A program made the position numbers and the translations under genes. The notes under the pieces are model-generated. The model was not told the DNA's origin. It worked only from the letters and a program-made list of their open reading frames with translations, and did no database searches. Below are positions 5,341 to 56,627 of a stretch of 64,000 bases of DNA, in pieces. The DNA is taken from contig CAZCGA010000010.1 of assembly GCA_964498075.1 (NCBI GenBank), positions 9,247 to 73,246 of the forward strand. The letters are read 5' to 3'. The DNA is from an uncultured Candidatus Binatia bacterium. Its GTDB lineage: Bacteria > Desulfobacterota > Binatia > HRBIN30. Every line of letters starts with the position of its first letter. Within the stretch, counting starts at the first letter, position 1.

Positions 5341-5349
5341 GGCGCGGAC

Positions 5350-6613: not shown

Positions 6614-6760
6614 CAGACGGACCGGAGAGGCAATCGGAGCCCGGCCCGAGGGAGCTGCTCCGTATTGTGACTACAAAAGCCGCGTGGTGTGGTTCCGAGT
6701 CTTCAGCCGATCTGTAGCGCTCGGAGGAGGTATCATGTGGCAACTTAGGGAGGTGACACG

Positions 6761-7015: not shown

Positions 7016-7042
7016 CCAATCGCGCGTCGCAACGGTTTGACG

Positions 7043-7076
7043 AAGAGGGCGATCCGCCGGGTCGCCCTTTCTTGTC
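7043..7076. terminator. Rho-independent terminator between convergent genes
   Basis: Hairpin is AAGAGGGCGA-tccgccggg-TCGCCCTTTCTT, followed by a T-rich run. It lies 28 nt after the lipoprotein stop and ahead of the end of the minus-strand ADH gene. Confidence 0.55.
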
Positions 7077-7131
7077 TCTGCGCTGTGGCCCTTGGCACCG
7101 GGTAGATCAGCAGCCCGCTCGGGCTGCAGAC

Positions 7132-8160: not shown

Positions 8161-8164
8161 CGCC

Positions 8165-9190
8165 TCACGGCACCACCGCAAACTTGATCCCGTCGCCGCG
8201 CTGGTGGTCGCTGAGCGCTTGCGCCAGGCTCGGCAGCGGGTACACGCCGCTGATCAAGGCCTGTCCGCCGAAGCCCTCGCCAACCAACATCTCGTAGGCC
8301 CGGCGCACCGCCCGCGGCGTGAAATGGAACGGGCTGATCAGCCGGAGCTGGTCGTAGTGCAGCCGCTGCGTGTCGCACCGCATCTCCGTTCCCGGAGGGC
8401 ACCCGCCGAACAGCACCACCTGACCGCCGCGCCGCGCCAGTGTGGGCGCGGCCTCCCACACGTCGACTTGTCCGGTGCACTCGATCACCACGTCGGCTCC
8501 CCGCCCGTGCGTATAGTCCAGCACTTGCTCACGGCAGGCCGCTACCGGCCCGGTGATGACCGCGTCAGCGCCCAGCTGCCGCGCATACTGTGCGCGTTGC
8601 GGCCGGCGCCCGAGGACGATGATCCGTTCCAGCCTCATGGCACGCAGCACCAGCAGGTGCAGCAAGCTGATGGCGCCGGCCCCGATCAGAACGGCGGTGT
8701 CGTCCGGACGCAGGACCACGCTCTCGAGCCCGTGCACCACGCAGGCCAACGGCTCGAGCAGGGCGGCGACCGGATACGGGAGGGCGGGCGGCTTGCGGTA
8801 CAAGTTGATATTGACGATGCGCCCCGGCAGCTTGATGTACTCCGCATACGCGCCGAGCACCATCGTCTCCATCACCGTCTCGCAGAGGTTCTCCTGCTCA
8901 CGCTCGCAGTAGTAGCACCGGCCGCAGGGCGCCGTCGGCACCGCCATGATCGCATCGCCCTCCCGGAAGCCGCGGACGCGGGAGCCGACCGCAGCGATGT
9001 CGCCGGAGAACTCGTGACCGAAAGGGGTGGGCATGGGGAACTTGGGATGTCCTCGCAGGAACGCCTTCACATCGGTGCCGCAGGTCAGCGCGGCCCGCAC
9101 CTGTACCACCACCTCGTCGGGGCCCGGGAGCGGACGGGGCAGCTCACGGAACGAGATCTCTCCCGGCCGGACGAGCACGTGCCCCTGCAT
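8165..9190 (-). CDS. Zinc-dependent alcohol/threonine/sorbitol dehydrogenase family (MDR) oxidoreductase
   Basis: Start MQGHVLVRPGE at 9190. Motifs seen: CGTDVK, GHEFSGDIAAVG, CGRCYYCEREQENLC and VLIGAGAISLL. Confidence 0.8.
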   Translation of the reverse strand: MQGHVLVRPGEISFRELPRPLPGPDEVVVQVRAALTCGTDVKAFLRGHPKFPMPTPFGHEFSGDIAAVGSRVRGFREGDAIMAVPTAPCGRCYYCEREQENLCETVMETMVLGAYAEYIKLPGRIVNINLYRKPPALPYPVAALLEPLACVVHGLESVVLRPDDTAVLIGAGAISLLHLLVLRAMRLERIIVLGRRPQRAQYARQLGADAVITGPVAACREQVLDYTHGRGADVVIECTGQVDVWEAAPTLARRGGQVVLFGGCPPGTEMRCDTQRLHYDQLRLISPFHFTPRAVRRAYEMLVGEGFGGQALISGVYPLPSLAQALSDHQRGDGIKFAVVP

Positions 9191-15275: not shown

Positions 15276-16094
15276 GTGCCACGCCTCAGGATCGGTGACC
15301 TTGCGCTCAACTACGAACAGGAAGGTCAGGGGACCGACCTCGTGCTGATTCATGGTCTGGGCGCCGACTTGCACATCTGGGATGCGGACGTGGCGGTGTT
15401 CGCGCGCCATCACCGGGTCCTCCGGCCGGACGTGCGCGGGTTCGGCGCCTCAGACAAGCCGCCGGGACCGTACTCGCCGGCGCTGTTTGCGCGCGACCTC
15501 GACGGGCTGTGTGCGGCGTGTGGCATCGTCGATGCGCACGTGTTGGGGATTTCCATGGGCGGCGTGATTGCGCAACGCTTCGCGCTCGATTTCCTGCGGC
15601 GCGTCCGCTCGCTGGTGTTGGTGAGCACCTCGAGCGAGGTGGGTGCAACGTCCGTTGCCGCGTGGCAGCGCCTCGCCGACACGATCGAGCGCGATGGCTT
15701 CGATGCACGCAGCGCGGATGCGTCGCGCGCATTCTCGCCGGCGTTTGCCGCGAGTCATCCGGAGGTCGTGGATGATCTCGGACGCCGCAATGCAGCCTGC
15801 GATTCGCAGGGTTACGCGGCGGCGGCGCGCGCGGTGAGTGATTACAACTGGACCGCGGAGTTGCCGCGGCTGAGGGTGCCGACACTGATCCTGCAAGGGC
15901 TCGACGACCAGCTGACGCCGCCCGGCGGCTCGGTCAAGATGAGCCGTCAGCTGGCGCACGCGCGTTTGCTGCTGGTGGAGGCCTGCGGACACAATCTCCC
16001 GATCGAGCAGCCGGCGGTGTTTCACTCCAGCGTGCTCGGGTTCACCGCCGGGGTCGATTTCGCGCGCGGCTGTGCGTCGAGCCCCGGCGATTGA
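15276..16094 (+). CDS. Alpha/beta hydrolase (3-oxoadipate enol-lactonase-like)
   Basis: GTG 15276 is in frame with track ORF 14223..16094. Motifs seen: LVLIHGLGADLHIWD, nucleophile elbow GISMGG and C-terminal CGHNLPIEQP. The upstream part of the track ORF is antisense to the dehydratase. Confidence 0.75.
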   Translation: MPRLRIGDLALNYEQEGQGTDLVLIHGLGADLHIWDADVAVFARHHRVLRPDVRGFGASDKPPGPYSPALFARDLDGLCAACGIVDAHVLGISMGGVIAQRFALDFLRRVRSLVLVSTSSEVGATSVAAWQRLADTIERDGFDARSADASRAFSPAFAASHPEVVDDLGRRNAACDSQGYAAAARAVSDYNWTAELPRLRVPTLILQGLDDQLTPPGGSVKMSRQLAHARLLLVEACGHNLPIEQPAVFHSSVLGFTAGVDFARGCASSPGD

Positions 16095-16108
16095 CTGTGC
16101 CGCGGACC

Positions 16109-19100
16109 ATGTCTACGCGAACGACGGGTGCGGCCCTCGGGCTGCTCATCGGTCTGCTCTTCTTCATTTCCGGATTCACCGGCCTCGTGTACGAGGTCAT
16201 CTGGGCCAAGTACCTGGCGCTGTTGCTCGGGAGCACGGCCTACGCACAGGTGGGGGTGCTGGCGGTCTTCATGGGCGGGTTGGCGGCCGGCAGTGTAGTG
16301 TGGGGTGGCCGGGTCGATCGCGGCAGCCGAGCGCTGGCGCTGTATGGGGCGCTGGAGATCGGGATCGGTCTGTGCGCCGTGGTCTTTGCGTCGGGGTTCG
16401 ATGCGCTGAGTCAGGCCTACTGGTGGGCGCTGGCGACGGTCGGCGCCACGGGACTCGCGGCCGCCGTAGTCAAGACAGGGCTGTGTGTCATCGCGATGTT
16501 TCCTTCGACTTTCTGCATGGGCGGGACCCTGCCGGTGTTGAGCCGGGCGCTTGGGGTGGAGCGTCCCGGGTTGGGCCGTGGCGTCGCCTACCTGTATACG
16601 GTGAACAGCCTGGGTGCGGCGCTCGGCGCGGTCCTCACCGGCTTCTATCTCGTTGCGATGTGGGGCTTCGATGCGCCGTTCTTCACTGCGGCGCTCGTCA
16701 ACGTTGGGGTTGGACTCATTGCTCTGGCGGCGTCGTCGCGAGTGTCCGACCAGCGTCGCGAGGCGCGTCCGGCGGCGAAGGAAGCAGAGGTCGCTGTCCC
16801 AGAGATCGACGAGGTGCGAGGTTACGCATCCTTGGTTCTCACGGCCGCCGCGGTCTCGGGCGCCGTCGCGATGGTCTACGAGGTCGCATGGATACGGTTG
16901 TGCAGCTTGGTGCTCGGCTCGTCGACGTACTCGTTCTCCATCATGCTCACGGCCTTCATTACGGGCATCGCGGCGGGCAGTCTGGTGTACAGCCTGACCG
17001 ACCCGGCGCGCCGGCGACCGTTGCGATTCTTCGCCTACAGCTCGCTGGTGGCGGCGGCGGTGTTGGTCTTGTGCCTGCCGGCGTATGAGCGGCTGCCATA
17101 TTATCTTGGGCGGCTTACGGCCATCCTGCGGCAGCGCGACGCGTCATTCGCGACGTATCAAACGGCGACGTTGCTCTTCTGCGTAGCCGTGATGCTACCG
17201 CTGACCTTCGTGAGTGGTTTGAACTTCCCCGCGTTGGCGCATGCGGCTGGGCAGGCGCGTGCAGGAATCGGTCGACCGGTGAGTCGGGTGCTATTTGCGA
17301 ATACGGCGGGCACGATCTGCGGGGCCGTTGTCGGTGGGCTCTATCTGCTCCCCGCGGCCGGCCTTCACGGAACGTTCCTTCTCGGCATTACGGCAACCGC
17401 GCTGGTGGCCCTGGTGGTATTGGCGCGTGACCGTGGTGTCCCACGCCGCAGGGTGCAGCTGCTCAGCGCAGTGTCACTGGCGGTGTTGGCGGCGTACGCG
17501 GTGATTGGACCGGGATGGGACCTCCGGTTGCTGGTTGCCGGCGAGTTCCGTCGCCACGAGGGCATCGAGGCCGGCACCTTTGCGGAGTATCGTGCCGGCT
17601 TGGAGCAGCAACTGCTCTTCTACCGGGACGGCATCAGCGCGACCGTCAGCGTCGAGCGTCAGCCGCCGGACGAAGTGACCTTGCGGGTGAATGGCAAGGC
17701 CGACGCGTCGGCCAAGGGGGATCGCGACACGGAGCTGTTGTCCGGCCACTTGCCGGCCATCCTGCATCCGACGGCGCGCCGCGCGTTGGTCATCGGGTAT
17801 GGCAGCGGCATCACGGTCGGCGCGCTGTTGCGCCATCCCATCGAGTCGGTCGACGTCGTCGAGATCTCTCCGGAAGTGATCGCCGCCGACGAGCAGTTTC
17901 GACCGTACAACCATGACCCGCTGCACGATCCACGCACGCACCTCTACGTCGAGGACGCGCGCACCTTTCTCTACCGTGTCGAGGAGCAGTACGACCTGAT
18001 CGTGAGCGAGCCCTCCAACCCCTGGATTGCCGGGATCGCCAACCTCTTTACGGTCGAGTTCTTCGACCAGGTGCGCAGTCGACTCGCCCCGGACGGCGTG
18101 CTCGTGCAATGGTTCCACACCTACGAGACCTCCGACACGCTGGTGCGACTCATTCTGCGGACCGTTGCCCAGGGTTTCGGGGAGGTACGGGTCTTCCAGC
18201 CGAATCGCTGGGACGTCTTTGTGGTTGCGGCGCCGTCACGACGCATCGTGAGCCGCACGGCCATGGAAGCGGCTTTCCGTGAGGCTGGGGAGCTGGGCGA
18301 AGTGGGGATCAACCGTGTCGCAACCGTGCTTGGGCTGGAGATGCTCGCCGACGCGGCGGTGCGCAGGCAAGCGGGAGCCGGCGTCGTGAACCGCGATCGC
18401 CTCCCGGTGCTCGAGTACATGGCGCCGCGGGCATTCTTCGATGGCAAGAACGCCAGTCTCATCGCCAAGGGTGCTATCGAGGACGGATTCGTGCAACCGG
18501 CGATCGGACTCGATGCAGACGACTACCGCGACCTCACTGCGTACCTGAAGAGAGCCGACCTGCTGCACTACAACCAGGCGCTGCGCATCGTGGCGGCGTG
18601 GCTGGCGGCCGCCCCACAGGACCAGACGGCGGCCAAGATGCTGACGGACTGGACAACCAGCAACCCCAACTCGCCCGTGTTGCTGGAGACGTTGAGCGGC
18701 GCCGCCTCCCACACCGACCCGGCGACGCGCGACGCCTATGCAGGGTTGCTGATGCGCGTGGTGTGGTCGCTGCACCTCAAACCCGCCGCGCGCGATGTCG
18801 CCGCGGTCGCCCCGATCGTTCGGACGGCGGCGCAGGGGTCTGAGCAGGCCGTTGAGCTGCTCACCCAGCTCGGTGAGCTCTACGTGGCGAGCGGTGCGTA
18901 TGCGGACGCCATCGAGACACTGGATGCCGCCTTGGCACAGTCCGCATCCGCCGGGCTCGACGGCGCATCGGAGCCGTCGGCGTTGCACTGCGCGCGTGGG
19001 CGCGCCTTCGAGAAGTTGGGTAACGTGCCGGCGGCGCAGGCGGCGTTGGCCCTGTGTCGGCCGGCGGCCCCCGATGCCGCGCATCCGTTCGCCGAGTCGC

Positions 19101-19126
19101 GGCGCCTGGACCAGGCCGTCCCCTGA
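16109..19126 (+). CDS. Membrane-fused spermidine-synthase-like (polyamine aminopropyltransferase family) protein with C-terminal helical/TPR-like region
   Basis: About 450 aa of predicted TM helices (FISGFTGLVYEVIWAKYL...) precede a class I MTase/SpeE-like core: ALVIGYGSGITVGALLRHPIESVDVVEISPEVI...YDLIVSEPSNPWIAGIANLFTVEFF. The tail is Ala/Leu-rich and helical. Confidence 0.6.
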   Translation: MSTRTTGAALGLLIGLLFFISGFTGLVYEVIWAKYLALLLGSTAYAQVGVLAVFMGGLAAGSVVWGGRVDRGSRALALYGALEIGIGLCAVVFASGFDALSQAYWWALATVGATGLAAAVVKTGLCVIAMFPSTFCMGGTLPVLSRALGVERPGLGRGVAYLYTVNSLGAALGAVLTGFYLVAMWGFDAPFFTAALVNVGVGLIALAASSRVSDQRREARPAAKEAEVAVPEIDEVRGYASLVLTAAAVSGAVAMVYEVAWIRLCSLVLGSSTYSFSIMLTAFITGIAAGSLVYSLTDPARRRPLRFFAYSSLVAAAVLVLCLPAYERLPYYLGRLTAILRQRDASFATYQTATLLFCVAVMLPLTFVSGLNFPALAHAAGQARAGIGRPVSRVLFANTAGTICGAVVGGLYLLPAAGLHGTFLLGITATALVALVVLARDRGVPRRRVQLLSAVSLAVLAAYAVIGPGWDLRLLVAGEFRRHEGIEAGTFAEYRAGLEQQLLFYRDGISATVSVERQPPDEVTLRVNGKADASAKGDRDTELLSGHLPAILHPTARRALVIGYGSGITVGALLRHPIESVDVVEISPEVIAADEQFRPYNHDPLHDPRTHLYVEDARTFLYRVEEQYDLIVSEPSNPWIAGIANLFTVEFFDQVRSRLAPDGVLVQWFHTYETSDTLVRLILRTVAQGFGEVRVFQPNRWDVFVVAAPSRRIVSRTAMEAAFREAGELGEVGINRVATVLGLEMLADAAVRRQAGAGVVNRDRLPVLEYMAPRAFFDGKNASLIAKGAIEDGFVQPAIGLDADDYRDLTAYLKRADLLHYNQALRIVAAWLAAAPQDQTAAKMLTDWTTSNPNSPVLLETLSGAASHTDPATRDAYAGLLMRVVWSLHLKPAARDVAAVAPIVRTAAQGSEQAVELLTQLGELYVASGAYADAIETLDAALAQSASAGLDGASEPSALHCARGRAFEKLGNVPAAQAALALCRPAAPDAAHPFAESRRLDQAVP

Positions 19127-20327: not shown

Positions 20328-22808
20328 ATGAACGGGATCAGCGGACTCGCGCGGGCAGCGGTGTTTCTTTGCTGCGTTGCGGCGACTGCGGCAGCCGCCG
20401 ACGGGGCGCCGGGCGATTTGGACTGCCTGACCCCTGGCGACATTACCGCGGTCGTTGAGGCGATCTTCAACGGCAGCACGTGTCCGGGAACGGACGTCAA
20501 CAGGGATGGACGCGTCACCGCTGCGGATCTTCCCGCAGCCGTTCGCGCCCTCCCGGTGCCACTGACCCCGAGCCTCACCCCAAGCTTGACCCCGGGCCTC
20601 GCCGCGAGCCCATCGGTCACGGCAACCCTGCAGTCACGCTCACCGACCGCCACGCCTACTCACACGGCTTCGACGACGCCGACCGCGACGCGGTTCGCGA
20701 CGCCGAGCTCCACTGCGTCGGCGTCGAATACGCCCACGGTTCGTTCGACGCCGGTTGCGACCGCGACAGGTCCGCTGTCCGTGACGCCGACCCCGTCACC
20801 CACGTCCTCGCGGACCGCGAGCGGTACCCCCTCGGCAACGCGCACGCCGTCGCCGCTATTGACCGCCCAGGCATCCATGACGCCGACGAGCACTGGAACG
20901 GCGACGTCCGCGTCTTCGCCAACGGTTTCGGCGACCGCTGCCGCGAGCGCAACGGTCACGAGCACCCCAACCGCCACGGGCACTGCGACCGCCACGCCCA
21001 CTGGGGCCACCGCTACGCCGGGAACGGTGACCCCCAACACCGCAACCCCAACTGCGTCCGCAAGCCCTAGCATTGCCGCAACGGCTACGCTGACACCGCC
21101 ACCCGACAGTACGGTTTCTCCACTCCCGCTCACGCCGACAGAAAGCCCGACGCCGGCCGCGACTCCAACACCCACCGCCAGTCCCGTGCTGACCCCGCCG
21201 ACGGCCGCGTCGTCATCAACGGTGACGCGGACAGCTACGCGGACCCTTACGCCGACCGCCTCTGCGACACCGAGTGCCACGCGCGTGCTGCCGCCCACCC
21301 TCACCCCCTCACGCACCGGGACTCCCGGCCCGACCGCTACGATGACCCGGACACCTTCGATCACGCGCACGCCCACGGTCACGCGGACGCCGACCGTAAC
21401 GTTGACACCGAGCCGGTCGCGAACGCCGAGCCGAACCGCGACGCCCTCGGTGACGCCAACCTCAACCAACACGCCGAGGGCTACCGCGACCGCCACCACG
21501 ACCAGAACACCGACACTCACACCAACGGCGACAAAGAGCCGGACGGCGAGCGGAACGCCCACGGCGACGGCGACCGGGACGGACACTGCCACCCCCACCG
21601 TGACGGCGACCCCGACGAACACACGGACGCCCACCCGGACCAAGACGTTGAGCGCCACGGCTACCTCCACGCCAACCTCCACCCTGACGCCAACGGTCAC
21701 TCAGACTCCGAGCCGAACGACCACCGGGACGGACACGCCGACCGCAACGCTCAGCCCCACACGCACGGCCACCAGGACAAAGACGGACACCGCGACGCGG
21801 ACACCGACGCGCACGGCGACCCGGACCGCGACATCAACCCCGACGCGCACATTCACTGCGACACCAACTGCGACGGCGACGCGTACGCCCCTCGGTACCG
21901 CCACGACGACCGCTACGCGTACCACAACGCCGACGGCGACGATGACTCGCACCCCCACCGCGACGGCGACATCGACAGTAACGCGCACGCCAACGGCGAC
22001 ACGGACGTTTTCGCGGACGCCAACCCAGACGGCGACTCGGTCACCAACACGTAGTGCGTCGCCCACTCGAACCGCCACCGGCACGCCGACGCCGCTCCCA
22101 CCGGATGCGGGACCGAAGGTGCTGTTCCTCGGAGTCGTCACCAACGCGGACGGCTGCGTGTTTTGTTGCGACGACACCTGCGTGACGACCCCGACCCCGA
22201 CGCCGGCGTTCGATGTTCAGGGACGCCGGGTCTACGAGGTAAAAAACGGTCAGTTCATCATCGTGGTGGAAGGTGCCGCCGGTGCGAGTCTCGCGGCTCC
22301 CGGCAAATCGCTGCAACCGGTCGCTCCAAGCAACCGGCCGGACCTGCAGATTCAAAACACTCGGGATATGGGAAACGGGAGTTCGCAGGTATGCGATACG
22401 GGTCCGGCGTCGTCCGGCGGTGGAGGCATTCCGGGGATCAACCCTGCGAGCTTCGCGCCAGGCAATCCGACGATCTCCGACGCGCTCAACGATTTCGCCT
22501 GTCGCTTCGATCCGTTTGTCAGCGCAAGTTCACCCTGCACGATCAAGGATCCAGGGCGCGAGCCGAAGACCATCATGACGGACGCCACGGCGCAGTTCTG
22601 CGACGTTGTGACAACGACCGCCGAATTTCCAACCGGCGAGTCGGTCGTGACGGTGAAACTGCGCGACGTGATCGGCAACCTCGGACCAACTGCCGAAATC
22701 GTGGTCCGGGTGGCCACACTCGCACCCACGCCGACGCGCACCGCGAGCCGCACCGCGAGCCGCACCCCGACACTGACTGCAACCCGTACCCCGACCCGCA
22801 CGCCGTAA
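20328..22808 (+). CDS. Secreted protein: dockerin/EF-hand-like loop, ~500-aa Thr/Pro/Ala/Arg low-complexity linker, conserved Cys-containing C-terminal domain (paralog A)
   Basis: A signal peptide is followed by [32 protein letters not shown], then long TPT/TRT repeats. The C-terminal ~230 aa includes [41 protein letters not shown]...[14 protein letters not shown]. Confidence 0.7.
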
Positions 22809-22916
22809 GTGGGAGTGCATCGGTGTGGCGGGAAATTTCTCGTGGTGCATTGCAAACGGCGCGCAGTCCAGGCATGAGAGATCGGCCTGATTCACTTGAG
22901 GCCGTTTGTTGTTCGT

Positions 22917-25451
22917 ATGTCGCGTCTTGCTCACCTGCCTGCGGGGAAATTTGTCTACAATGCGGCAGGGCGGTTGGTCGTGGCCGCGATCGTTGCCTGT
23001 CTCGGTGCAGCGCCGGCAGTTGCTGCCTGCCTGCCCGGCGATGCGGACTGCGATAGCGCCGCGGATTCCCGCGACGTAAGCGGCGTGATCGCCGCGATCT
23101 TCGGCGACAACAGCTGCGAGTGTGCTGACGCCAACGGCGACGGTCGCGTAACGGCTGCCGACGTCCTGGCGGAGCTACGGCGGTTGCCGGTCCCGACGCC
23201 AACCGCGACGGTCGAAGCGTCGCCGACTGCCACGCAACCGTCACTGTCGCCGAGTCCGACACCGAGCGCTTCGCCGACCGAGTCGGCCACGCGGGGGGGC
23301 TCGCCATCACCCACGAGTACTCCCACGGGGGTGTTGACGCCGGGACAGACGGCGCTGCCTTCGGCAACGCTCATGCCCACACCGACACGAACATTGACGC
23401 CGTCAGGAACATCCACGGCGTCGAGTAGCCCGGCGTCGACACGCACGACATCGCCCTCGCCGACGCCGGAGGCGACGGCGACGCAATCGACGACGTCGGC
23501 TCCAACGGCATCGCCGACGGAGGCGACCACGGCGACGGTTCCGCCGTCGTCGACCTCCACCCCCGGGGACACACCGACATCGTCTGCGACGCCGACGGAG
23601 ACCGCTACGCTGCCGCCGTCCCAAACTCCAACCATTACGGGGACGCCCACGGTCACACCGACCGAGTCCGATACGCCGACGGTGACGCAGACGTTGACGC
23701 CCTCACGGACAGGAACGGCGACGCGCACGGGAACCGTCACTCACACGCCCCGCGCGACCGCAACGACAACAACCACACGCACCTTCACGCGCACTGGGAC
23801 ACCCTCGGCGACCCCGACGATAACGCGCACACCGACCAATTCCCGGACGCCAACGATTACGCGGACGCCGCCGCCAACGGGAACCGACACGCCGACTCCG
23901 ACGCCTTCGTCCACCGGAACGGTTGCCACGACACCACCGGTGACTTCCACGCTGAGCGCGAGTCATACGCCGTCCATTACCGCGACGGCCGCAACGACTC
24001 CCATGGACACCGCTACCCTCGCGCCGACAGAAACCGCACCGCCGGGCTCGACGCAGACAGCAACGTTCACAGCGAGCCAGACGACCCCCACGGCGACCCC
24101 GACGCTCACGTGGACTCCGACGAACACCAAGACGCCGTCACTGACCCGGACGCCGACGGTCACGCGGACACCCACAACAACACGCACAGACACACCGACC
24201 CCCACCAATACGTGGACCTTCACTCTGACGGCGACGCAGACGGTGACGAGAACCCCGACGGTGACCGCCACCGCAACGGTGACGCGAACGCCATCGGCAA
24301 CGCGTACCGCAACCGCGACGCCGACGTCGACCCGCACAGCGAGCGGCACCGGTACCTCGACGACGACGCGCACGCCGACGGCGACGCCGACGGGGAGCGG
24401 GACGCAAACGCCCACCCGCACCCCAAGCGCGACGGCCTCTGCGACGGTGACCGCGACGCCGACGGCGACGCGCACGTCGACCGCAACGGCGACGGCAACA
24501 CCGTCGCAGACGGCGACGCGCACCCCGACGACGACGGCCACGCGGAGTGCAACACCCAGCCCGACGTCGACACGAACGCTGACGGCAACCCGAACCAACA
24601 CGACCACGGCGACGCCGTCGCGGACACCCACCTCGACCGCCACGCGGACCGCAACAGCGACGCTGACATCGACACGGACGGCTACGTCGACCGCGACCCC
24701 GTCGGTAACGCCGCCGTCGACGCCAACGCGTACCCCGACGCGGACACCTACAGCGACGTCGACGCGAACGGCGACGCGGACGCCGCCTCCGACGTCATCA
24801 CTTCCGGGCCCGCGCGTGCTGAAGCTTGTCGTGGCTAACGGCAACGGATGCGCCGCCTGCGACGATCCGCTCTGTCAATGCACCGGCACGCCGTCACCCA
24901 CGCCGAAGATCGAGCAAGGGCTGCAGGTTTTCGACCGACCGTTTGGCTGTGGCTTCATCATAGTGGTCGAGGGCCAGCCGGCGACTCCACAGAGCCCGGC
25001 GGTGGGCACCTCGTTGCAGCCGCCGCTTCCACCCCCGACTCCCCAGACCACCCGACCCGACCTGCAGATTGAGGCGAGCCGCAATCTCGGAAACGGGAGC
25101 CTGACGGTGTGTGACCGCGGCCCGGCATCGTCCGGTGGTGGTGGGATCCCTGGAATCGACCCTGCCAACTTCGGGGCGGGCCAAGATATCACTGATGCCT
25201 TGTGGGACTTCTCGTGCCGCTTTGATCTCGGTACGCCCTGCACTCTGGGGTCGAACGGTGACAGTGCGTTCCTGGCACCGGAGTGCAACCTCCCCGCGAA
25301 TCAGTGCCGTCAATTCTGCCGATTGGTGCCTGGCACCGAGGGTTTTCCCGCCGGCGATACTATCCTAACGGCGCAGTTGCGCGACGTTGCGAAGAACATC
25401 GGCCCCGCGACCCAGATCGTCGTCCGGGTGGCGGCGGCCTGTGGGCCGTGA
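22917..25451 (+). CDS. Secreted protein, paralog B of 20328..22808 (dockerin-like loop + Thr/Pro/Arg linker + same C-terminal domain)
   Basis: ATG is at 22917 (the track starts at TTG 22896). N-terminal part is [30 protein letters not shown], followed by a TRTPT-type linker. The C-terminal domain includes [41 protein letters not shown]...LTAQLRDVAKNIGP. Confidence 0.7.
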   Translation: MSRLAHLPAGKFVYNAAGRLVVAAIVACLGAAPAVAACLPGDADCDSAADSRDVSGVIAAIFGDNSCECADANGDGRVTAADVLAELRRLPVPTPTATVEASPTATQPSLSPSPTPSASPTESATRGGSPSPTSTPTGVLTPGQTALPSATLMPTPTRTLTPSGTSTASSSPASTRTTSPSPTPEATATQSTTSAPTASPTEATTATVPPSSTSTPGDTPTSSATPTETATLPPSQTPTITGTPTVTPTESDTPTVTQTLTPSRTGTATRTGTVTHTPRATATTTTTRTFTRTGTPSATPTITRTPTNSRTPTITRTPPPTGTDTPTPTPSSTGTVATTPPVTSTLSASHTPSITATAATTPMDTATLAPTETAPPGSTQTATFTASQTTPTATPTLTWTPTNTKTPSLTRTPTVTRTPTTTRTDTPTPTNTWTFTLTATQTVTRTPTVTATATVTRTPSATRTATATPTSTRTASGTGTSTTTRTPTATPTGSGTQTPTRTPSATASATVTATPTATRTSTATATATPSQTATRTPTTTATRSATPSPTSTRTLTATRTNTTTATPSRTPTSTATRTATATLTSTRTATSTATPSVTPPSTPTRTPTRTPTATSTRTATRTPPPTSSLPGPRVLKLVVANGNGCAACDDPLCQCTGTPSPTPKIEQGLQVFDRPFGCGFIIVVEGQPATPQSPAVGTSLQPPLPPPTPQTTRPDLQIEASRNLGNGSLTVCDRGPASSGGGGIPGIDPANFGAGQDITDALWDFSCRFDLGTPCTLGSNGDSAFLAPECNLPANQCRQFCRLVPGTEGFPAGDTILTAQLRDVAKNIGPATQIVVRVAAACGP

Positions 25452-25481
25452 GGCATTATCAAACTATTTTCGCTTTTCCGC

Positions 25482-25510
25482 TTGACTAGTTTTGCGGAAT
25501 GCGGCATAGA
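25482..25510 (+). promoter_or_regulatory. Candidate sigma70-type promoter for the four-paralog operon
   Basis: TTGACT (25482-25487), a 17-nt spacer, then CATAGA (25505-25510). It sits in a locally AT-rich gap (GGCATTATCAAACTATTTTCGCTTTTCC...) ~80 nt upstream of the ATG at 25588. The -10 element is weak. Confidence 0.3.
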
Positions 25511-25587
25511 AACTGTCGCGTTTTCACCGGGATCGAGGAGGTCCCTGCTTGATGGTAGACGCTGGAGTTACCGAAAGGAGGCGTGCA

Positions 25588-26952
25588 ATGCGTGGGTTAA
25601 AGCGGAATCCTTGGCTGTTTGGCCTTGGGGTACTGCTCGCTGTCCTGGTGGTGTATGGAGGGCATGCCCGAGCCGACGTCACCACCGACCAGTCGGGCTC
25701 GCTCATCTTCTTCCCGAAGGTGATCGCCGATGGGACGCGAGATACACTGATCGAACTGACCAACACCTCGAACATGGCGGCGTATGTGCACTGCTTCTAC
25801 GTCAATGCGTCCGGGCACTGCCGCGTCTCCGGTGAGGCGTGCAAGACAGACATCGACTGCCCGACGGATCCGGTAGTGGAGACCTGCGACCGGCAGTGTG
25901 TGCCGAATGACTTCGACCTCCTGCTGACGGCTCAGCAGCCGACTATGTGGCGAGTGTCGACCGGCCGCATCACCAACCTCTTCTTCCCGCCGCCGTGCCG
26001 CATCGGTCAGCGGTGTGCCTGCGCGGGTGGCGTCCAGTGCGACGGCAATGGCCTGTCGGGTAGCCAGTGCTGCCCAGGCGATGAGCCGGGCCTGGCGGGG
26101 CAGAACTCGTTCGCGGTACCGAAGACCGGAACCGACTTCGAGGGGCTGCTGAAGTGCGTTCAAGTCGACGAGAACTTCGAGATGCCTGTGATGCAAAACT
26201 CGCTCAAGGGCGAAGCGGTGCTCGAAACCTTGGAGTCCGGACAAGTCAGTGAGTACAATGCACTCTCGATTACGGCGTCCACGGGCCTGGACAGCAACCT
26301 CGATCTCCACCTCCTGAGCCCTGTGCCGTCAGGTGTCGTCAACGGCGTGAACGAGTACAATGGCTGCCCAACGAGCCTGGTGCTCAACCACTACGCTGAC
26401 GGGGCGGTCGATGCCTTCTCGGGCGCGTCGGTCACGACCGAGCTGACGCTCGTACCGTGCACGGACCTTCTGGAGGCGGCCCGTCCGACTCATACCGTAG
26501 TGAGCTTCAACCTGATCGACGAGTTTGAGGATCTGATCGGCAGTGCCGACGCAGTCGGTTTTGACTGCTTCTTCAACAGTCGCCTCGGCGACATCAGGAA
26601 TTTCTTCAAATCGAAACTCGTGGGAGGCGCGGTTCCCGTCACCAGCCCATTTGCCAAGACAAGGATCAAGGTCTCCTCAGGGTCGGTTTGTTACAGCGGG
26701 GACAACATCGGCAAGGGGTGCAACCCGGCCAACGGCGATGATGACTGCACGGGATTCGAAACCACGGACACCGGTACGTCGCTGGGCTGCCGGGCGTCCA
26801 GCGCGGTTCTGGGCGTGGCAGAGGAGTTCCACTCAATTATCGGTCGTCCTGACGGCACCGCGGCTGTAAACCTCATTCAAGAGGGTAGCCGCACCGGGAA
26901 CGATGGTCGCATGGGTGACCTCATTGTCGCTCCACGGTTGAAGCACGACTGA
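25588..26952 (+). CDS. Secreted Cys-rich protein, uncharacterised paralog family (member 1)
   Basis: AAGGAGG lies 6 nt before the ATG. Signal peptide is MRGLKRNPWLFGLGVLLAVLVVYGGHARA. Family motifs: SLIFFPKVIADGTRDTLIELTNTSN..HCFYVNA, LKGEA, EYNALS, EYNGCPTSLVLNHYADG, ELTLVPC, IDEFE. Confidence 0.75.
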   Translation: MRGLKRNPWLFGLGVLLAVLVVYGGHARADVTTDQSGSLIFFPKVIADGTRDTLIELTNTSNMAAYVHCFYVNASGHCRVSGEACKTDIDCPTDPVVETCDRQCVPNDFDLLLTAQQPTMWRVSTGRITNLFFPPPCRIGQRCACAGGVQCDGNGLSGSQCCPGDEPGLAGQNSFAVPKTGTDFEGLLKCVQVDENFEMPVMQNSLKGEAVLETLESGQVSEYNALSITASTGLDSNLDLHLLSPVPSGVVNGVNEYNGCPTSLVLNHYADGAVDAFSGASVTTELTLVPCTDLLEAARPTHTVVSFNLIDEFEDLIGSADAVGFDCFFNSRLGDIRNFFKSKLVGGAVPVTSPFAKTRIKVSSGSVCYSGDNIGKGCNPANGDDDCTGFETTDTGTSLGCRASSAVLGVAEEFHSIIGRPDGTAAVNLIQEGSRTGNDGRMGDLIVAPRLKHD

Positions 26953-27044
26953 CGCGAGCCGGAGGAGAGGTGATGGCGATGAATCTGAACCCTATCGTTA
27001 CTGGTTCGGGACGCTCCGGCGAGCGGAACGAAAGGAGAGGGGCA

Positions 27045-28409
27045 ATGATGAAGATTGCGCGAGTTGCTTCCGTGACTGCGTTGGTGGGGCTCGCGGCGGG
27101 AGTGGGGTTCTTCTCGGCCACTCCAATCGCCCGAGCGGCAAGTACTTCCGACAAGCCCGCAGCGATTCTGACATGGCCGAAGGTTGTGGTAGACACGCTC
27201 GGAAACTTTGGGGTGTGTGTCGACAGCCTAGGCAAGTCGTGCAGCAAGAACTCCGACTGCGGTAGCGGAGGCGTGTGCAACGCAACCCCAACTGACACGC
27301 TCATCCAGCTGAGCAACACTAGCCGAGTGCCGAAGCAGGCCCGTTGCTTTTACGTGGATGCGACGGATCACTGCAACGACGGCAGCGACCGAGTCTGCCG
27401 AGGTGCTTCCGATTGCCCACTCGACGGCGGTGGGTTTGCGCCATGTGCACAAAACTGGAACGAGATCGATTTCGACATCTTCATCACCCCTGACCAACCG
27501 CTGGCCTGGTACGCAAGCAGGGGGCTGCACAGAACAGAGTTCCCGAAGGAGGGGCCGGGCACGTGCAACAATCGTCCAGGCCTGTTCTGCTTCAGTGACA
27601 ACGACTGCGGCGCGGGGGGCTGCAACCTTGGCGACACCAACCTCGGTAGCGGCGTGCCACCGACGTCCGAAGATCCGTTCATCGGCTCGCTAACGTGTAT
27701 CGAATTTGACCCCACGAAGAGGCCGCCTGTGCCTGATCAGTCTGATACGAGAAACACCCTGAAGGGCGAGGCTGCAATCATCGCTCTTCCGCCTGATAGC
27801 GAATTGCGCGCCGGCGTTGACGTCCAGAAGTACAACGCGGTGGGCCTACAGGCGACCGGCAACCAGTCGGGTCTAACCGGTCAATTGCAGATCGGTCCGG
27901 ACAACGGCGACACCGGGGGCCAGGAGTACGCGGCTTGCCCAGCAACCCTCATTCTGAATCACCTCTTCGATGGCGCGACGGATCCGATTTCGGGTGACAC
28001 TGAAGTCGACGCAACGGTGCGCACGGACCTGACCCTGGTGCCCTGCGGCAACAACCTGCTCACGCAAACCCCCGGTCGCGTGATCGCTCACTTCCTGGTC
28101 TTCAACGAATTCGAACAACGGTTCTCAGCAATCCGGACGGTCGACTGCTTCCTGGAGAGTCAGCTTTCGCGGATCGACACCTCGAATCCCACGCGCTCAA
28201 TATTCAACGCGGGTGTGTCGGGCACGATTGCGGGTCAGAGCCGAATCCGAGGGGTGGGTTCAGCGGCGACAGGCCGTGGACTTCTCGGCGTGGCACGCGT
28301 GTTCTTCGCCAACGCCGAAACGACCTGGGAATCCGGCGCGGGCTACAACCTGCACCAATTCGGCGAACCCGCTGACAACGTGCAGGCAGACGTCATTACG
28401 ATTCCCTAG
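27045..28409 (+). CDS. Secreted Cys-rich protein, same paralog family (member 2)
   Basis: AAAGGAGAGG precedes the ATG and a signal peptide is present. Family motifs: ILTWPKVVVD...DTLIQLSNTS..ARCFYVDA, LKGEA, KYNAVGL, EYAACPATLILNHLFDG, DLTLVPC, FLVFNEFEQRFS. Confidence 0.75.
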   Translation: MMKIARVASVTALVGLAAGVGFFSATPIARAASTSDKPAAILTWPKVVVDTLGNFGVCVDSLGKSCSKNSDCGSGGVCNATPTDTLIQLSNTSRVPKQARCFYVDATDHCNDGSDRVCRGASDCPLDGGGFAPCAQNWNEIDFDIFITPDQPLAWYASRGLHRTEFPKEGPGTCNNRPGLFCFSDNDCGAGGCNLGDTNLGSGVPPTSEDPFIGSLTCIEFDPTKRPPVPDQSDTRNTLKGEAAIIALPPDSELRAGVDVQKYNAVGLQATGNQSGLTGQLQIGPDNGDTGGQEYAACPATLILNHLFDGATDPISGDTEVDATVRTDLTLVPCGNNLLTQTPGRVIAHFLVFNEFEQRFSAIRTVDCFLESQLSRIDTSNPTRSIFNAGVSGTIAGQSRIRGVGSAATGRGLLGVARVFFANAETTWESGAGYNLHQFGEPADNVQADVITIP

Positions 28410-28469
28410 CTCCGTCGTGTCGGCGAGGCGCGGTTAGTTCAGGCGGTGATGGCGAAAAGGAGGGAACTC

Positions 28470-29660
28470 ATGAGGACGATCCAAAGCGTGCGCGCCGGCT
28501 GGCTCGTGGGTGCACTCGGAGCATGTCTTGTAATTGCGGGCGCGGCGCGAGCGGATGTATCCACGGAGCGCCCAGGGTCCATCCTAATCTTCCCGAAGGT
28601 CGTCAACGATGGAACCCGTGACACAATCATCCAGGTTACGAACACCGGAAACATGATTAATCGCCTTCGATGCTTTTACCTCGACGGTGAGCTCGGGCGC
28701 AACGGCCGGCCGATCTGCCAGGAAACAGACTTCTTCCTTATACTAACCAAGCAGCAGCCGACCCATTGGCGGGTGAGTACTGGCCGTGAAGCAAACATCC
28801 TGTCAGCGTTCGGGAGTGAAGAAGCCGGGCTCGATCCGGGTGTGGTGCCAGCCCAAGCGGTAGGATTTCAAGGTGCGTTGGTATGTGTCGAGGTGAACGA
28901 AGATGAACGACCGGTCTCCCAGAGCAAGCTCTTGGGAACCGCAACGCTCCTCGGACGGGTAAAGGGAGACCCGAGCTTGGCGTCGGAGCTGAGTAAGTAC
29001 AATGGAATTGCCATCGCTGGATTGGCGGGAAACAACATGGATGGCGATCTGAAGCTCGAGGCGGAACCGGGCGACGATCCCAAAACCAAGGAGTACAACG
29101 CCTGCCCGGCAACAAACATCCTGAATTTCATTCCGGACGGGGGCTTGGATCCGGTAATCCAAGCGTTCGGAAACGGCGGGATCTGCGACGCCGCTAGCGA
29201 TGTGCCTGGGGCGCCCTGTAATGTGAACGACGCCGGCGCATGTCCCAACGGGTCCTGCGACGCGAGCGTAGCCCGTTCGAGTGTGACGACGAACCTGACG
29301 GTGTTGCCGTGCGATCTAGACTTCCGCAACGGGATCCCGACCACGGTGACCCTGCAGTTTGAGGTGCGGGATGAGTTCGAGACGCTGATCACGGGAGGTC
29401 GCAGGAACGTGACCTGCGTGCAGAGCTTCGAGATCGGCAGCGGCACCCTGACGCAGATGCGGTCCAGTCTGCTGCCGCAGGGGGCCGTATTTACTCAGTA
29501 CGCAACGGTTCGTATCAACGCCACTGTCGGTGGCCCCGTGCTAGCGGTGGCTGAGTCCTTCCATACCGACAGCATCGGTAATACCGCTGCAAGCGCTGAG
29601 AACCTGAGCGTTGAGGGGACCGATCCAAGCGCTCAGATCAAGCTATCCGACGGGCCGTGA
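28470..29660 (+). CDS. Secreted Cys-rich protein, same paralog family (member 3)
   Basis: AAAAGGAGGG precedes the ATG. Signal peptide is MRTIQSVRAGWLVGALGACLVIAGAARA. Family motifs: SILIFPKVVNDGTRDTIIQVTNTGN..LRCFYLDG, KYNGIAI, EYNACPATNILNFIPDG, NLTVLPC, VRDEFE. Confidence 0.75.
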   Translation: MRTIQSVRAGWLVGALGACLVIAGAARADVSTERPGSILIFPKVVNDGTRDTIIQVTNTGNMINRLRCFYLDGELGRNGRPICQETDFFLILTKQQPTHWRVSTGREANILSAFGSEEAGLDPGVVPAQAVGFQGALVCVEVNEDERPVSQSKLLGTATLLGRVKGDPSLASELSKYNGIAIAGLAGNNMDGDLKLEAEPGDDPKTKEYNACPATNILNFIPDGGLDPVIQAFGNGGICDAASDVPGAPCNVNDAGACPNGSCDASVARSSVTTNLTVLPCDLDFRNGIPTTVTLQFEVRDEFETLITGGRRNVTCVQSFEIGSGTLTQMRSSLLPQGAVFTQYATVRINATVGGPVLAVAESFHTDSIGNTAASAENLSVEGTDPSAQIKLSDGP

Positions 29661-29731
29661 GGGGAACGCAGGATGGCGAGGCGCGAGAGAGAATGCGCGG
29701 CGATTGCTCAGGGACCCAAAGGAGACGCACG

Positions 29732-30934
29732 ATGAAGAAGCGGGTATTGTCGATGGCGGTGGTCGGTGGTCTCGCGGCGTTTGGGGCGCTCCTCGGAGTA
29801 CCGCACCGAGGTGAGGCGCAAGCCATGATTGGGTCGGACCGGTCTGCCGGGCTGGTCATTTTTCCGAAGATCGTGGTCGATTCCGCTGGGGTATTTCACG
29901 GGGGTCGAGCGGTCGATACAGTGATTCAGCTTACCAATACGGCGCAGCAAGGGGATTTCAACACCGACGATACTGGTCTGCGATTCGTTCACTGTAGCTT
30001 GGTGAACGCGACTGGGCATTGCGGGAGCTGCGATCCCAACCTGTCCGGCCCGGCGTGCGAGACGAACGCACAGTGCGGACCAGGGGGCATCTGTGAGGCA
30101 TGTTGGAGTGAGACGGACTTCACCTTTTCAATGACCCACGACCAGCCTACCGGTTGGCGCGCCAGCGAAGGAATAGCAGGTAGCGTCGGGAATACACCCG
30201 AGGATCCGTTCGTCGGTGAGCTGAAGTGCTTCGAAGTGAATGGTGCGATACCGCCGGATGCCCTGCTACCGATTAATGCGAATGATCTGATCGGCAAGGC
30301 AACCATTGAGGAGGTAACAGGCGGTGCACCGGGGAGTGTGGACGCGAGAACGTATAGCGCGATTGGAGTGCCGGCTGTCTTGGCGGATGGGTCCGTGCAG
30401 GGCGATGAGGTGCTGTGCCTCGGGTCGAACTCAGCGTCCAGCGAGTGCGCCGGTGCTGAGTACGCGAGCTGTCCCAGCACGCTGATCCTCAACCACTTCT
30501 TCGATAACGTCGGGGCAGTGGAGAGCACGACAACAGACCTTACGCTGGTTCCGTGCACCGAGAACATAGTGGATCCGGATGCGCAACCGATTACGGCAGT
30601 GCAGTTCCTGGTCTTCAACGAGTTCGAGCAGCGTTTGTCTGGGAGCCTTAGGATTAGTTGCTTCAAGGAGACACGTCTATCCAATATCGACCGGAGAGTC
30701 GGCCAGGAGCTGTCCTCCATATTCAACGTCGCCCTTCAGGGGACGTTGGCGGGGCAGACGCGGATTCGACCGGTCACGGGCTCCGAGACTGACACGGGAC
30801 ACGGCCTGCTCGCCCTTGCTGAGGAGTTCCGCACGGCCGGCAGGGGAGAGTTCCGCGGATCGGCCGCGTTCAACGTTGGTTATGCGGGGACGAACGATAA
30901 CAAGGCGGATTTCATTCGGTTCTTGGTCAAGTAG
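29732..30934 (+). CDS. Secreted Cys-rich protein, same paralog family (member 4)
   Basis: AAAGGAG precedes the ATG. Signal peptide is MKKRVLSMAVVGGLAAFGALLG. Family motifs: GLVIFPKIVVD...DTVIQLTNTAQ..VHCSLVNA, TYSAIGV, EYASCPSTLILNHFFD, DLTLVPC, FLVFNEFEQRLS. Confidence 0.75.
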   Translation: MKKRVLSMAVVGGLAAFGALLGVPHRGEAQAMIGSDRSAGLVIFPKIVVDSAGVFHGGRAVDTVIQLTNTAQQGDFNTDDTGLRFVHCSLVNATGHCGSCDPNLSGPACETNAQCGPGGICEACWSETDFTFSMTHDQPTGWRASEGIAGSVGNTPEDPFVGELKCFEVNGAIPPDALLPINANDLIGKATIEEVTGGAPGSVDARTYSAIGVPAVLADGSVQGDEVLCLGSNSASSECAGAEYASCPSTLILNHFFDNVGAVESTTTDLTLVPCTENIVDPDAQPITAVQFLVFNEFEQRLSGSLRISCFKETRLSNIDRRVGQELSSIFNVALQGTLAGQTRIRPVTGSETDTGHGLLALAEEFRTAGRGEFRGSAAFNVGYAGTNDNKADFIRFLVK

Positions 30935-30964
30935 CAAGCTGGGGAGTTGTCGGAAGCTGCGAGA

Positions 30965-31005
30965 GGGCCGACCGTCCGAAGGGACGGCCGGCCCTTGTGC
31001 GTCTT
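30965..31005 (+). terminator. Rho-independent terminator closing the four-paralog operon
   Basis: GGGCCGACCGTCC-gaag-GGACGGCCGGCCC is a 13-bp stem with one mismatch. It is followed by TTGTGCGTCTT and lies 30 nt after the stop at 30934. Confidence 0.65.
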
Positions 31006-31178
31006 GGACGTTCACCTGTTGAACACTTGGAAGCCGTACGCTCAGATCTGTACAGCCTGGAGGAGAATTGCCCCGCCAGGTGTGTGCGGTTGTTGGCGTC
31101 TAGTTGGGCATGCGGAGTGCTTTCGATCCGCTGGCAGTGGCGGGGATTTTGGGTGGGGAGCGGCGCGGTGGCCAGGGA

Positions 31179-31577
31179 ATGACACGAAAGAAGATCCTAG
31201 TGGTCGAGGACAACCTGGATAACAGGAGAATACTAGTCTACCGCCTTAGACGGATGGGAGACTTCGAGATCACTGAGGCCAGCAACGGGCAGGAGGCGCT
31301 TGCCGCGATTGAGGTGGAGGTGCCTGATGTGGTGTTTATGGACCTTAAGATGCCTGTGATGGACGGCTGGGAGGCAACGCGGCGCATACGGGCTCTAGAT
31401 CGAGGGCAACGGATTCCAATCATCGCGTTGACGGCGCAGGCAATGGCCGGTGACGAGCAGAAGGCGCTTGCCGCAGGTTGTGACGACTACATAGCGAAGC
31501 CCATTGTCGATCCCTGCGTGGTACGGGATAAGTTGGAACGGCTGTTGGCAATCGGGCGTGATGAAAGCCGAGCGTAG
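31179..31577 (+). CDS. Single-domain response regulator (CheY-like receiver)
   Basis: Sequence is MTRKKILVVEDNLDNRR...DVVFMDLKMPVMDGWEATRRIR...PIIALTAQAM...AGCDDYIAKP. Confidence 0.85.
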   Translation: MTRKKILVVEDNLDNRRILVYRLRRMGDFEITEASNGQEALAAIEVEVPDVVFMDLKMPVMDGWEATRRIRALDRGQRIPIIALTAQAMAGDEQKALAAGCDDYIAKPIVDPCVVRDKLERLLAIGRDESRA

Positions 31578-32312: not shown

Positions 32313-32756
32313 TCAGGGTTTCGGGGGTGGGCCGGTCGCGATGCGTTGCGGCAGTCCGGAGGCTTCGTTACCCTGCGGGCGAATCTCCTTCGTCTTCAGA
32401 TTGGAGCGCCACACAGCCACTTTGCGTTCGGAGCCCTCCTTCCACAGGAGCGTCACCTCGTACTCTGGCCCGTCACGCTGAATGGCATCCCAGCTGAATT
32501 CGCCGACGTAGATGTCCTGCTCCTTTGCCTTCAGCGAGTAGCCCCGGATCATGTCGTAGAGGCTCTCGGAGCCCGTTGGCTTGAAACTCTTCACCAACTC
32601 GATCGCATCGTTCTTCTTGTCTGCCCAACGCTCCCCGACGATGAGTGGCGCGCCAATGTAGACAGCAAAGCCGACTGCAAAGGCGGCGAGGCTTCCCCAC
32701 CCGAGTATCGCTCCCAAGGAACTCTCGTGCTTTGACTCCGTGTCCTGCGCCATCAT
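32313..32756 (-). CDS. Hypothetical single-pass membrane protein
   Basis: Start MMAQDTESKHE at 32756. One TM helix is present (LGAILGWGSLAAFAVGFAVYIGAPLIV). No family recognised. Confidence 0.45.
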   Translation of the reverse strand: MMAQDTESKHESSLGAILGWGSLAAFAVGFAVYIGAPLIVGERWADKKNDAIELVKSFKPTGSESLYDMIRGYSLKAKEQDIYVGEFSWDAIQRDGPEYEVTLLWKEGSERKVAVWRSNLKTKEIRPQGNEASGLPQRIATGPPPKP

Positions 32757-33029
32757 TTCCCCCGATCCACTGGGCGTGCCGCCGTCGTCATGGTCTCGGC
32801 TTGCGCAATTAGCCGACCGTGAGGCCGAACGCAAGCGGAGCAGAGGTCGGCACCGGGGCCGGCCGCGGAGCAACCCACACGTTCAAAATACGTAGCGGTG
32901 TCAATCCGTTTTCGTTGCGCTGTCGTCGCAGTGCCCACAAAGAATACCGCGACGCCAACGGCGCACTGGCATAGAGCTTGCGGTATCACTCGCGCCATGA
33001 CGCGCGACACGCGTGCGTGAGGTTCCCCG

Positions 33030-56616: not shown

Positions 56617-56627
56617 GGGCGTGAACG

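Follow-up and report, generated by a model that had tools for sequence, protein, structure and literature searches.

What are the four cysteine-rich secreted proteins encoded one after another on a Binatia contig, how did they come to stand together, and what might they do? Here, we analysed a 64,000-nucleotide (nt) stretch of contig CAZCGA010000010.1 (hereafter the window) from an uncultured Candidatus Binatia bacterium, in which genes A to D occupy positions 25588 to 30934, directly downstream of two proteins with long Thr/Pro-rich stalks, TP1 and TP2. Members of Binatia occur widely and in abundance in soils and sediments; to our knowledge, the class has no cultured representative, and we know of nothing described about its cell surface. 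A reading made from the letters of the window alone (hereafter the original prediction) had taken the four genes for an operon of paralogs that diversified by local tandem duplication. Our comparisons point instead to two ancient types of what is almost certainly a new exported protein family, kept in a fixed order and, in the quartet arrangement seen here, accompanied by the stalk proteins across many related genomes.

All four open reading frames (ORFs) lie on the forward strand, each with its own Shine–Dalgarno sequence and signal peptide, just as had been described. A (alpha1, 25588–26952) encodes 454 residues with 20 Cys in the mature protein and three Cys-rich insertions; B (beta1, 27045–28409) likewise encodes 454 residues, with 17 mature Cys and a beta-type four-Cys loop 1; C (alpha2, 28470–29660; 396 residues, 10 mature Cys) represents the minimal scaffold and is the paralog that we modelled; and D (beta2, 29732–30934) encodes 400 residues with 13 mature Cys. 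The genes are separated by 92 (A–B), 60 (B–C) and 71 (C–D) nt, and the sequence AAAGGAG is located 7–9 nt 5′ of each ATG (25588, 27045, 28470 and 29732). In each signal peptide, a positively charged n-region is followed by a hydrophobic h-region and an AxA site (ARA↓D in A and C, ARA↓A in B and AQA↓M in D). A heuristic based on hydrophobicity and the AxA site predicts signal peptides in 241 of the 244 full-length homologues, with a lipobox in just eight of the 244, and five Cys residues (C68, C139, C212, C281 and C316, numbered as in C) are universal across the family in addition to the Cys-rich insertions, which agrees with the view that these are exported, disulfide-rich proteins.

The alignment of A–D is collinear, with 63 invariant columns, and the motifs first read from the four proteins (FPKV, DT.I.L.NT, CFY, TDF..QP..W, F.G.L.C, YNA, EY..CP, LTLVPC and NEFE) proved to be columns invariant throughout the family; the conserved Cys are indeed interleaved with the Cys-rich insertions that had been quoted. 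Pairwise identity reaches 40.0% between A and C and 39.5% between B and D, compared to 30–36% between alpha and beta proteins, a level of similarity so far above chance that the four are true homologues.

The higher identity within A–C and B–D reflects a division that runs through the family. Every ORF at 82 loci was searched with a family hidden Markov model (HMM), and the genes were typed first by best hit and then by HMMs built from A+C and B+D. As typed by these sequence profiles, the family falls into an alpha type (A and C) and a beta type (B and D), both ancient, with alpha preceding beta. Family genes always form same-strand tandem arrays; in the pair loci, the first gene is alpha in 64 of 65 cases and the second is beta in 64 of 65, the sole exception being a truncated contig on which the register is shifted. 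Across the 82 loci, the arrays read alpha-beta-alpha-beta (32 loci), alpha-beta (30) or three successive alpha-beta pairs (2), and most of the remainder are contig-end truncations or frameshift fragments from long-read assemblies, with real exceptions to the alternation at four loci: L021 and L029 (alpha-beta-alpha), L042 (alpha-alpha-beta) and L080 (alpha-beta-beta). The A-B-C-D order is itself orthologous to that of the window in 23 other loci, where the best score stands clearly apart from the second-best and A orthologues hold the first position in 22. Local tandem duplication is thus not what produced the quartet, which preserves two old alternating types in an order shared by orthologues in 22 or more other genomes.

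Both types retain a common core (PK, DT, N, C, DF, T, QP, W, G, F.G.L.C, N.LKG, YNA, Y..C, T..PC, E.E, S and C), while their type-specific conserved residues are complementary, lying N-terminally in alpha and C-terminally in beta, which also has four extra conserved Cys in loop 1. Odd numbers of Cys predominate among the pair-locus proteins (51 of 65 alpha and 55 of 65 beta, together 106 of 130), a parity that would fit one intersubunit disulfide or a free thiol. Taken together, the pairing, the alternation, the complementary conservation and the odd Cys counts are most simply read as an obligate alpha–beta heteromer, and from these sequence patterns we consider a heteromer of this kind to be the probable working unit.

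Is the family truly unrecognised, as the original prediction held? Searches of A–D against Pfam and NCBIfam at E ≤ 1 identified no family, the two exceptions being a chance CsoS4 match in D and a sub-threshold Myxo_Cys_RPT match in B, in which residues 66–81 align with the Myxococcus Cys-rich repeat TIGR04201 (17.7 bits; cut-off 25). A search of PDB sequences with the four-protein profile returned nothing but chance matches (E > 1), and in our search of the literature on Binatia secreted or surface proteins and metaproteomes no paper mentions the A–D family or the C-terminal domain (CTD) of the TP proteins. The A–D family and this CTD are both absent from Pfam, NCBIfam and the PDB. The recognisable parts of the cluster are limited to signal peptides, dockerin-like loops, Thr/Pro linkers and a receiver domain.

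An AlphaFold2 model of C built with 119 homologues (predicted local distance difference test (pLDDT) score 81, predicted TM-score (pTM) 0.82) is all-beta, with approximately 22 strands, and has no global neighbour among PDB structures in Foldseek, where all query TM-scores (TMq) are ≤ 0.22. Its top match is TM1070 (1nc7; E 3e-5, TM-score 0.65 over the 117-residue target, TMq 0.22), followed, at TM-scores of 0.12–0.15, by a two-jelly-roll mushroom lectin, glycoside hydrolase family 2 (GH2) enzymes and transglutaminases, the lectin and GH2 matches having E-values of 4e-5 to 1e-3 and a root-mean-square deviation of ~20 Å. TM1070 is a member of the ASRT/ASRAH beta-sandwich superfamily, for which a small-molecule-binding pocket has been predicted and whose topology is related to that of carbohydrate-binding module family 4 (CBM4) (PMC2739507). 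For the model of C, this similarity is a lead towards sugar binding rather than a classification. Comparison with viral structures in Foldseek likewise gave no global match, and the picornavirus capsids and tail fibres that it returned share generic beta structure. At the level of the beta-sandwich fold the proteins are not new, while the family, its gene organisation and the gene cluster are undescribed.

The family alignment contains no conserved metal-binding His/Cys/Met motif. Its invariant polar residues (numbered as in C) are K43, D51, T52, N58, Q96, N152, Y177, N178, Y209, E302, E304 and S308, with E302 and E304, within NEFEQR, situated on a predicted strand and 94–100% conserved in both alpha and beta.

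Several more specific readings were considered. The N- and C-terminal halves of the protein show no detectable relation in hhalign, which argues against an internal duplication. No Pfam Cohesin match (PF00963) was found at E ≤ 1, and cohesin chains are missing from the top 50 Foldseek PDB matches of the all-beta model. A GH16-like jelly-roll hydrolase is not supported, as only E-F-E is conserved, ExDxxE (GH16/GH7) is absent and Pfam gives no match; nor is membership of the ASRT/TM1070 (ASRAH) superfamily, given that the family profile has no PDB sequence match and the likeness is at the fold level in one part of the protein. Chaperone-usher or lipoprotein (type V) pilins are likewise not supported: the lipobox is rare, and the window encodes no chaperone or usher genes.

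The four-protein profile retrieves hundreds of relatives at E < 1e-80. A word-indexed search yielded at least 471 relatives, every one labelled 'hypothetical' and, where a source is named, assigned to Candidatus Binatia or to an unclassified 'Deltaproteobacteria' metagenome-assembled genome (MAG), and an exhaustive HMM search of 1.84 billion representatives produced 2124 clusters (50% identity) at E ≤ 1e-3, 703 of them at E ≤ 1e-30. Scanning one genome per GTDB species identified 79 loci, most labelled Binatia, the labels being those of the submitters. The odd labels among them (Margulisiibacteriota, Myxococcales and Mycobacterium bins) are probably mis-assignments, since these loci have the same synteny as those of Binatia, and judging from the sequences collected the family appears to be confined to Binatia-type MAGs. 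Individual genomes contain three to four loci and at least 8–12 family genes, counts that are lower bounds, as a single peptide pattern was scanned. At L002 (12445–15138), L051 (11125–13747) and L077 (9968–12532), on contigs with MFD- or ERZ-type names, family genes are split by apparent frameshifts into several short ORFs, more likely through errors of long-read assembly than because they are pseudogenes.

A clue as to what the quartet may work with comes from its neighbours, which we identified by ORF clustering and by direct comparison with the window genes. TP1 (20328–22808, forward strand) comprises a signal peptide, a degenerate dockerin-like Ca-loop module, a Thr/Pro/Ser/Ala stalk of ~520 residues and a CTD of ~210 residues (22095–22730), and TP2 (22896–25451, forward strand; translation may in fact begin at an internal ATG near 22917) is a second protein combining a dockerin-like module, a TP stalk and a CTD (24801–25448, ~210 residues), the two CTDs being 50% identical. 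The window's own modules score below the Pfam Dockerin_1 gathering cut-off of 22.9 bits (PF00404), with 13.6–16.9 bits for TP1 and 18.6–20.9 bits for TP2, and six of nine orthologous TP N-terminal modules pass it (27–40 bits). TP2 has two dockerin-type Ca-binding loops (DxNxDGxV...D type), one of which is GDADCDSAADSRDV; in TP1 the second loop alone is intact, while the TP orthologues show both canonical loops.

The CTD has 140 Binatia homologues, none with a Pfam domain, and its confident model (pLDDT 94, pTM 0.91) has no real Foldseek neighbour in the PDB, the best being the p53 core at a TM-score of ~0.3; it may represent a new fold or a family in its own right. The possibility that it is a diverged member of the A–D family was rejected by comparison, which finds the two unrelated, and so was a lipoprotein anchor on the TP proteins, in which no lipobox is conserved across orthologues.

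CTD-bearing TP proteins belong to quartet loci, apart from one pair locus (L081), and each quartet locus has two of them, matching its two alpha–beta pairs. One TP-CTD gene always lies directly upstream of the quartet, and the place of the second varies between upstream, as seen in the window, and downstream of the response regulator gene. A TP1-like protein is encoded at 22 of the 23 quartet loci (median identity to the window protein 42%) and a TP2-like protein at 20 of 23 (38.5%), alongside the A–D orthologues at all 23 (38–42%). The suggestion that the whole 20.3–31 kb block forms one system is thereby borne out at the level of gene order, with dockerin/TP proteins flanking the quartet in 20–22 of the 23 orthologous loci, and a fusion protein described below points the same way.

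The quartet is preceded by an intergenic gap (25452–25587, forward strand), which contains the Shine–Dalgarno site of A and had been called AT-rich and promoter-like. Its GC content is relatively low indeed (0.51, and 0.42 in the first 60 nt, versus 0.65 for the window), but a consensus scan of the gap revealed no sigma-70 match, which leaves the promoter unsupported. Similarly, the strong terminator that was expected 3′ of D corresponds to a real GC-rich hairpin closing the four-gene unit (30963–31003, forward strand; free energy −36.2 kcal/mol, z −2.9) and is likely a terminator, but its U-tract is weak and a terminator consensus scan did not flag it. Immediately downstream follows a stand-alone receiver-domain response regulator (31104–31577, forward strand; Pfam Response_reg), present at this position in 22 of the 23 quartet loci with a median identity of 79%, and a small single-pass membrane protein (32313–32873, reverse strand), with a weak SepH-like match (24 bits; cut-off 40), recurs in 20 of 23 (61.5%). 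In the window, kinases accompany the regulator 3′ of the quartet. The regulator is a conserved neighbour whose functional membership in the system is uncertain, and the genes 5′ of TP1 are not conserved across the quartet loci. Compared to the 61–79% identity of the flanking genes at the same loci, the 38–42% identity of the A–D orthologues marks them as fast-diverging in sequence, and insertions of 0–97 residues, often Cys-rich, have been gained and lost at fixed loop sites.

Domain fusions, sought among the 150 best family representatives, provide a second line of evidence. P0133, a called gene on an NCBI assembly contig, unites two family domains with a dockerin-like module, a PT linker and a CTD as in TP1 and TP2, and so ties the family domain to the TP proteins. 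In P0235 and P0250, the family domain is accompanied by dockerin-like modules and Cys-rich repeats, which in P0235 include a true myxo_disulf_rpt (41 bits); P0193 and P0204 have beta-propellers N-terminal to the family domain; P0196 and P0217 bear a lipobox and TP linkers; and P0121 and P0179 are gene-call read-throughs in which an alpha gene ends in a TP stalk followed by a Cys/transmembrane-helix/Arg tail. The tripartite layout of these tails, as judged by eye, is that of MYXO-CTERM-type sorting signals (PMC11980579). Membership of that family was rejected, as neither tail matches TIGR03901, and no MYXO-CTERM-like tail occurs at the C-termini of A–D, TP1 or TP2. The architectures of P0121, P0179, P0193, P0204, P0196, P0217, P0235 and P0250 locate the domain on stalks or anchors at the cell exterior. 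With P0133 and the conserved gene order in mind, we regard a functional link between A–D and the TP proteins as fairly likely.

Related architectures occur in the wider gene neighbourhoods. The window itself encodes a 1049-residue protein with YNCE/lactonase-type beta-propeller repeats (522–3671), similar to the propellers of P0193 and P0204 and followed by TPR and FecR-domain proteins. At L010, in a Binatia-type MAG, the region 5′ of an alpha–beta pair (4354–8171) contains a 943-residue PD40-propeller protein in which Cys-rich repeats accompany two true dockerins (40.9 bits) and a stretch weakly resembling cohesin, for which a cohesin identity was not supported, and the next protein (329 residues) combines a TP linker with a tail of MYXO-CTERM-like type (TIGR03901, 15.2 bits; cut-off 20). 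This arrangement recurs in approximately 10 loci, suggesting that Binatia sort proteins to their surface through Cys tails and display them there by means of dockerins.

How, then, might the parts work together? We favour, with a probability of roughly 0.4, a scheme in which A–B and C–D are extracellular heteromeric binding heads that operate with the two dockerin/stalk/CTD proteins as one assembly. The four proteins would be exported via Sec and fold in the oxidising envelope, pairing as A–B and C–D or joining into one heterotetramer, and their association with the two stalk proteins would create an extracellular or cell-surface fibrillar assembly. In it, the alpha–beta units would act as binding heads through a polar face that is conserved and Cys-knotted loops that change fast, most likely towards a glycan or another surface. 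As for the role of A–D as such, we lean only tentatively, at somewhat less than even odds, towards binding rather than catalysis or pure structure. A bolder version, in which the heads dock without cohesin on dockerin-tipped, mucin-like stalks to form a Binatia-specific surface organelle, with the Cys-knotted loops conferring cell–cell, cell–prey, cell–phage or cell–mineral recognition and the 4–6 loci per genome providing a repertoire of specificities, is speculative and seems rather doubtful.

Several considerations weigh against the binding-head scheme. A–D show no cohesin signature in Pfam at E ≤ 1 or among the top 50 structural neighbours, and every structural match stays at or below a TMq of 0.22. 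Neither A–D nor the TP proteins of the window bear an anchor to the membrane or the cell wall; release from the cell or retention in the periplasm is therefore conceivable for them. A dockerin-loop ORF lies within 10 kb of only 10 of the 58 alpha–beta pair loci; with no nearby dockerin protein at the other 48, dockerin binding is not the general role of the family, and a dockerin partnership of all pair loci is ruled out. The fusions come from few proteins in metagenome assemblies, synteny within a single class can reflect common ancestry and may overstate functional linkage, and the protein–protein contacts of the assembly are predicted from the genes. Finally, the invariant polar residues, including the strand-borne E-x-E, would suit a catalytic, metal or Ca site equally well.

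This last point leads to the first rival, an extracellular enzyme. The alpha–beta units would be a jelly-roll-type carbohydrate-active or other hydrolytic or lytic enzyme, its active site built from the Glu-x-Glu of NEFEQR and the numerous other invariant polar residues, with the stalk proteins as substrates or co-displayed partners. The near-complete conservation of E302 and E304 on a predicted strand in both types is what such a site would predict, GH2 and lectin jelly-rolls are found among the Foldseek neighbours, and one type of pair locus adjoins UDP-glucose dehydrogenase and sugar-modifying genes. Yet the retention of the same residues in alpha and beta is unlike many catalytic/pseudo-catalytic pairs, no CAZy-type Pfam match appears at E ≤ 1, the ExDxxE motif is missing, and the structural matches are those of a generic beta-sandwich; we therefore hold an enzymatic role to be unlikely.

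The second rival is a structural coat or fibre, in which alpha and beta would polymerise together as an S-layer-like lattice, a sheath or a fibril decorated by the TP proteins, the multiple pair loci supplying alternative subunits. The strong Shine–Dalgarno sequence of each gene, the 8–12 or more family genes per genome spread over several loci, a pairing reminiscent of two-component lattices and the surface-type fusions in relatives would all be in line with it. Divergence and loop turnover are, however, high for a lattice protein, neither a repeat or lattice-forming domain nor an anchoring domain (SLH, OmpA-like and similar) was recognised, and our literature search turned up no Binatia expression data on the family, leaving a coat improbable in our estimation. 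Least credible are periplasmic heterodimers unrelated to the stalk proteins, with redox, metal-handling or chaperone-like functions, conserved free Cys and a merely historical synteny with the TP genes: the odd number of universal Cys (five), the prevailing odd Cys parity, the lack of an anchor or secretion tag on the window proteins and the housekeeping genes that surround most pair loci would accord with them, but the dockerins, TP stalks, C-terminal sorting tails and propellers fused to the domain in relatives speak for an outward location, exposed proteins typically show such hypervariable Cys-knotted loops and such fast divergence, and the metal-binding His/Cys/Met motif is absent, so that we deem them very unlikely.

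Elsewhere in the window, we noted a CRISPR-Cas system of the GSU0053/GSU0054 type (type I-U/I-G-like) at 49866–61442, with Cas_GSU0053, Cas_GSU0054, Cas3 (helicase and HD) and a Cas4-Cas1 fusion, next to a CRISPR array (61676–64000) with at least 32 copies of the 36-nt repeat CTCTCCGCGACCAATTGGTCGCGGCCCCATTGAAGC spaced at ~74 nt and reaching the window end. Positions 16091–19126 encode a 1011-residue fusion of a multi-pass membrane domain resembling the major facilitator superfamily (MFS) with a spermidine/spermine synthase-like domain.

The A–D family is one of the expanded secreted families of Binatia, and yet it has been missed by annotation libraries, as has the stalk CTD; at minimum, the two are new domain families for Pfam. 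The strict alpha–beta alternation makes the obligate heteromer a concrete and testable prediction, and the conserved seven-gene cluster is a defined target for study. Should the heads bind dockerins, they would constitute a cohesin-independent dockerin receptor; should they bind glycans or cells, they would offer a first handle on attachment and interaction in Binatia.

Among known proteins, the ASRT/TM1070 (ASRAH) and CBM4-like domains share with A–D an all-beta sandwich, and their ligand-binding pocket, in which His/Cys residues are conserved, is a predicted one (PMC2739507). Unlike A–D, ASRAH proteins are small and mostly cytoplasmic; the match spans about one-third of C (TMq 0.22), and there is no sequence relation. 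Two-jelly-roll lectins and the sugar-binding and immunoglobulin (Ig) domains of GH2 enzymes have a comparable multi-domain beta-sandwich architecture, but TM-scores of 0.12–0.15 denote generic similarity, and A–D have no catalytic TIM barrel. In TraA-type stalked surface receptors of Myxococcus, a variable head sits on a Cys-rich stalk with MYXO-CTERM sorting (PMC11980579). P0121 and P0179 parallel this layout with their head domain, Thr/Pro stalk and Cys/transmembrane/Arg tail, as does the A–D family with its fast-evolving heads and Cys-rich, repeat-like insertions (the weak TIGR04201 match). In contrast to TraA, a single polymorphic domain, the heads would be heteromeric alpha–beta units; the family has no PA14 domain or TraB-like partner, the tails miss TIGR03901, and the window proteins are tail-less.

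Cohesin–dockerin systems, as in cellulosome scaffoldins, offer the other parallel: the TP proteins have N-terminal type-I-dockerin-like double Ca-loop modules, with orthologues above the Pfam cut-off, and long Thr/Pro linkers, all components are secreted, and non-dockerin beta-sandwich proteins are encoded alongside. The differences are that A–D have neither the cohesin sequence signature nor a top-50 structural match, that the dockerin is N-terminal, on a stalk with a novel CTD and no recognised catalytic domain, and that the cluster, in a host lineage of diderm-type Binatia, has no carbohydrate-active enzymes. By these signatures the cluster belongs to neither the cohesin–dockerin systems nor the TraA-type receptors, and it is in its possible mode of working that it resembles both.

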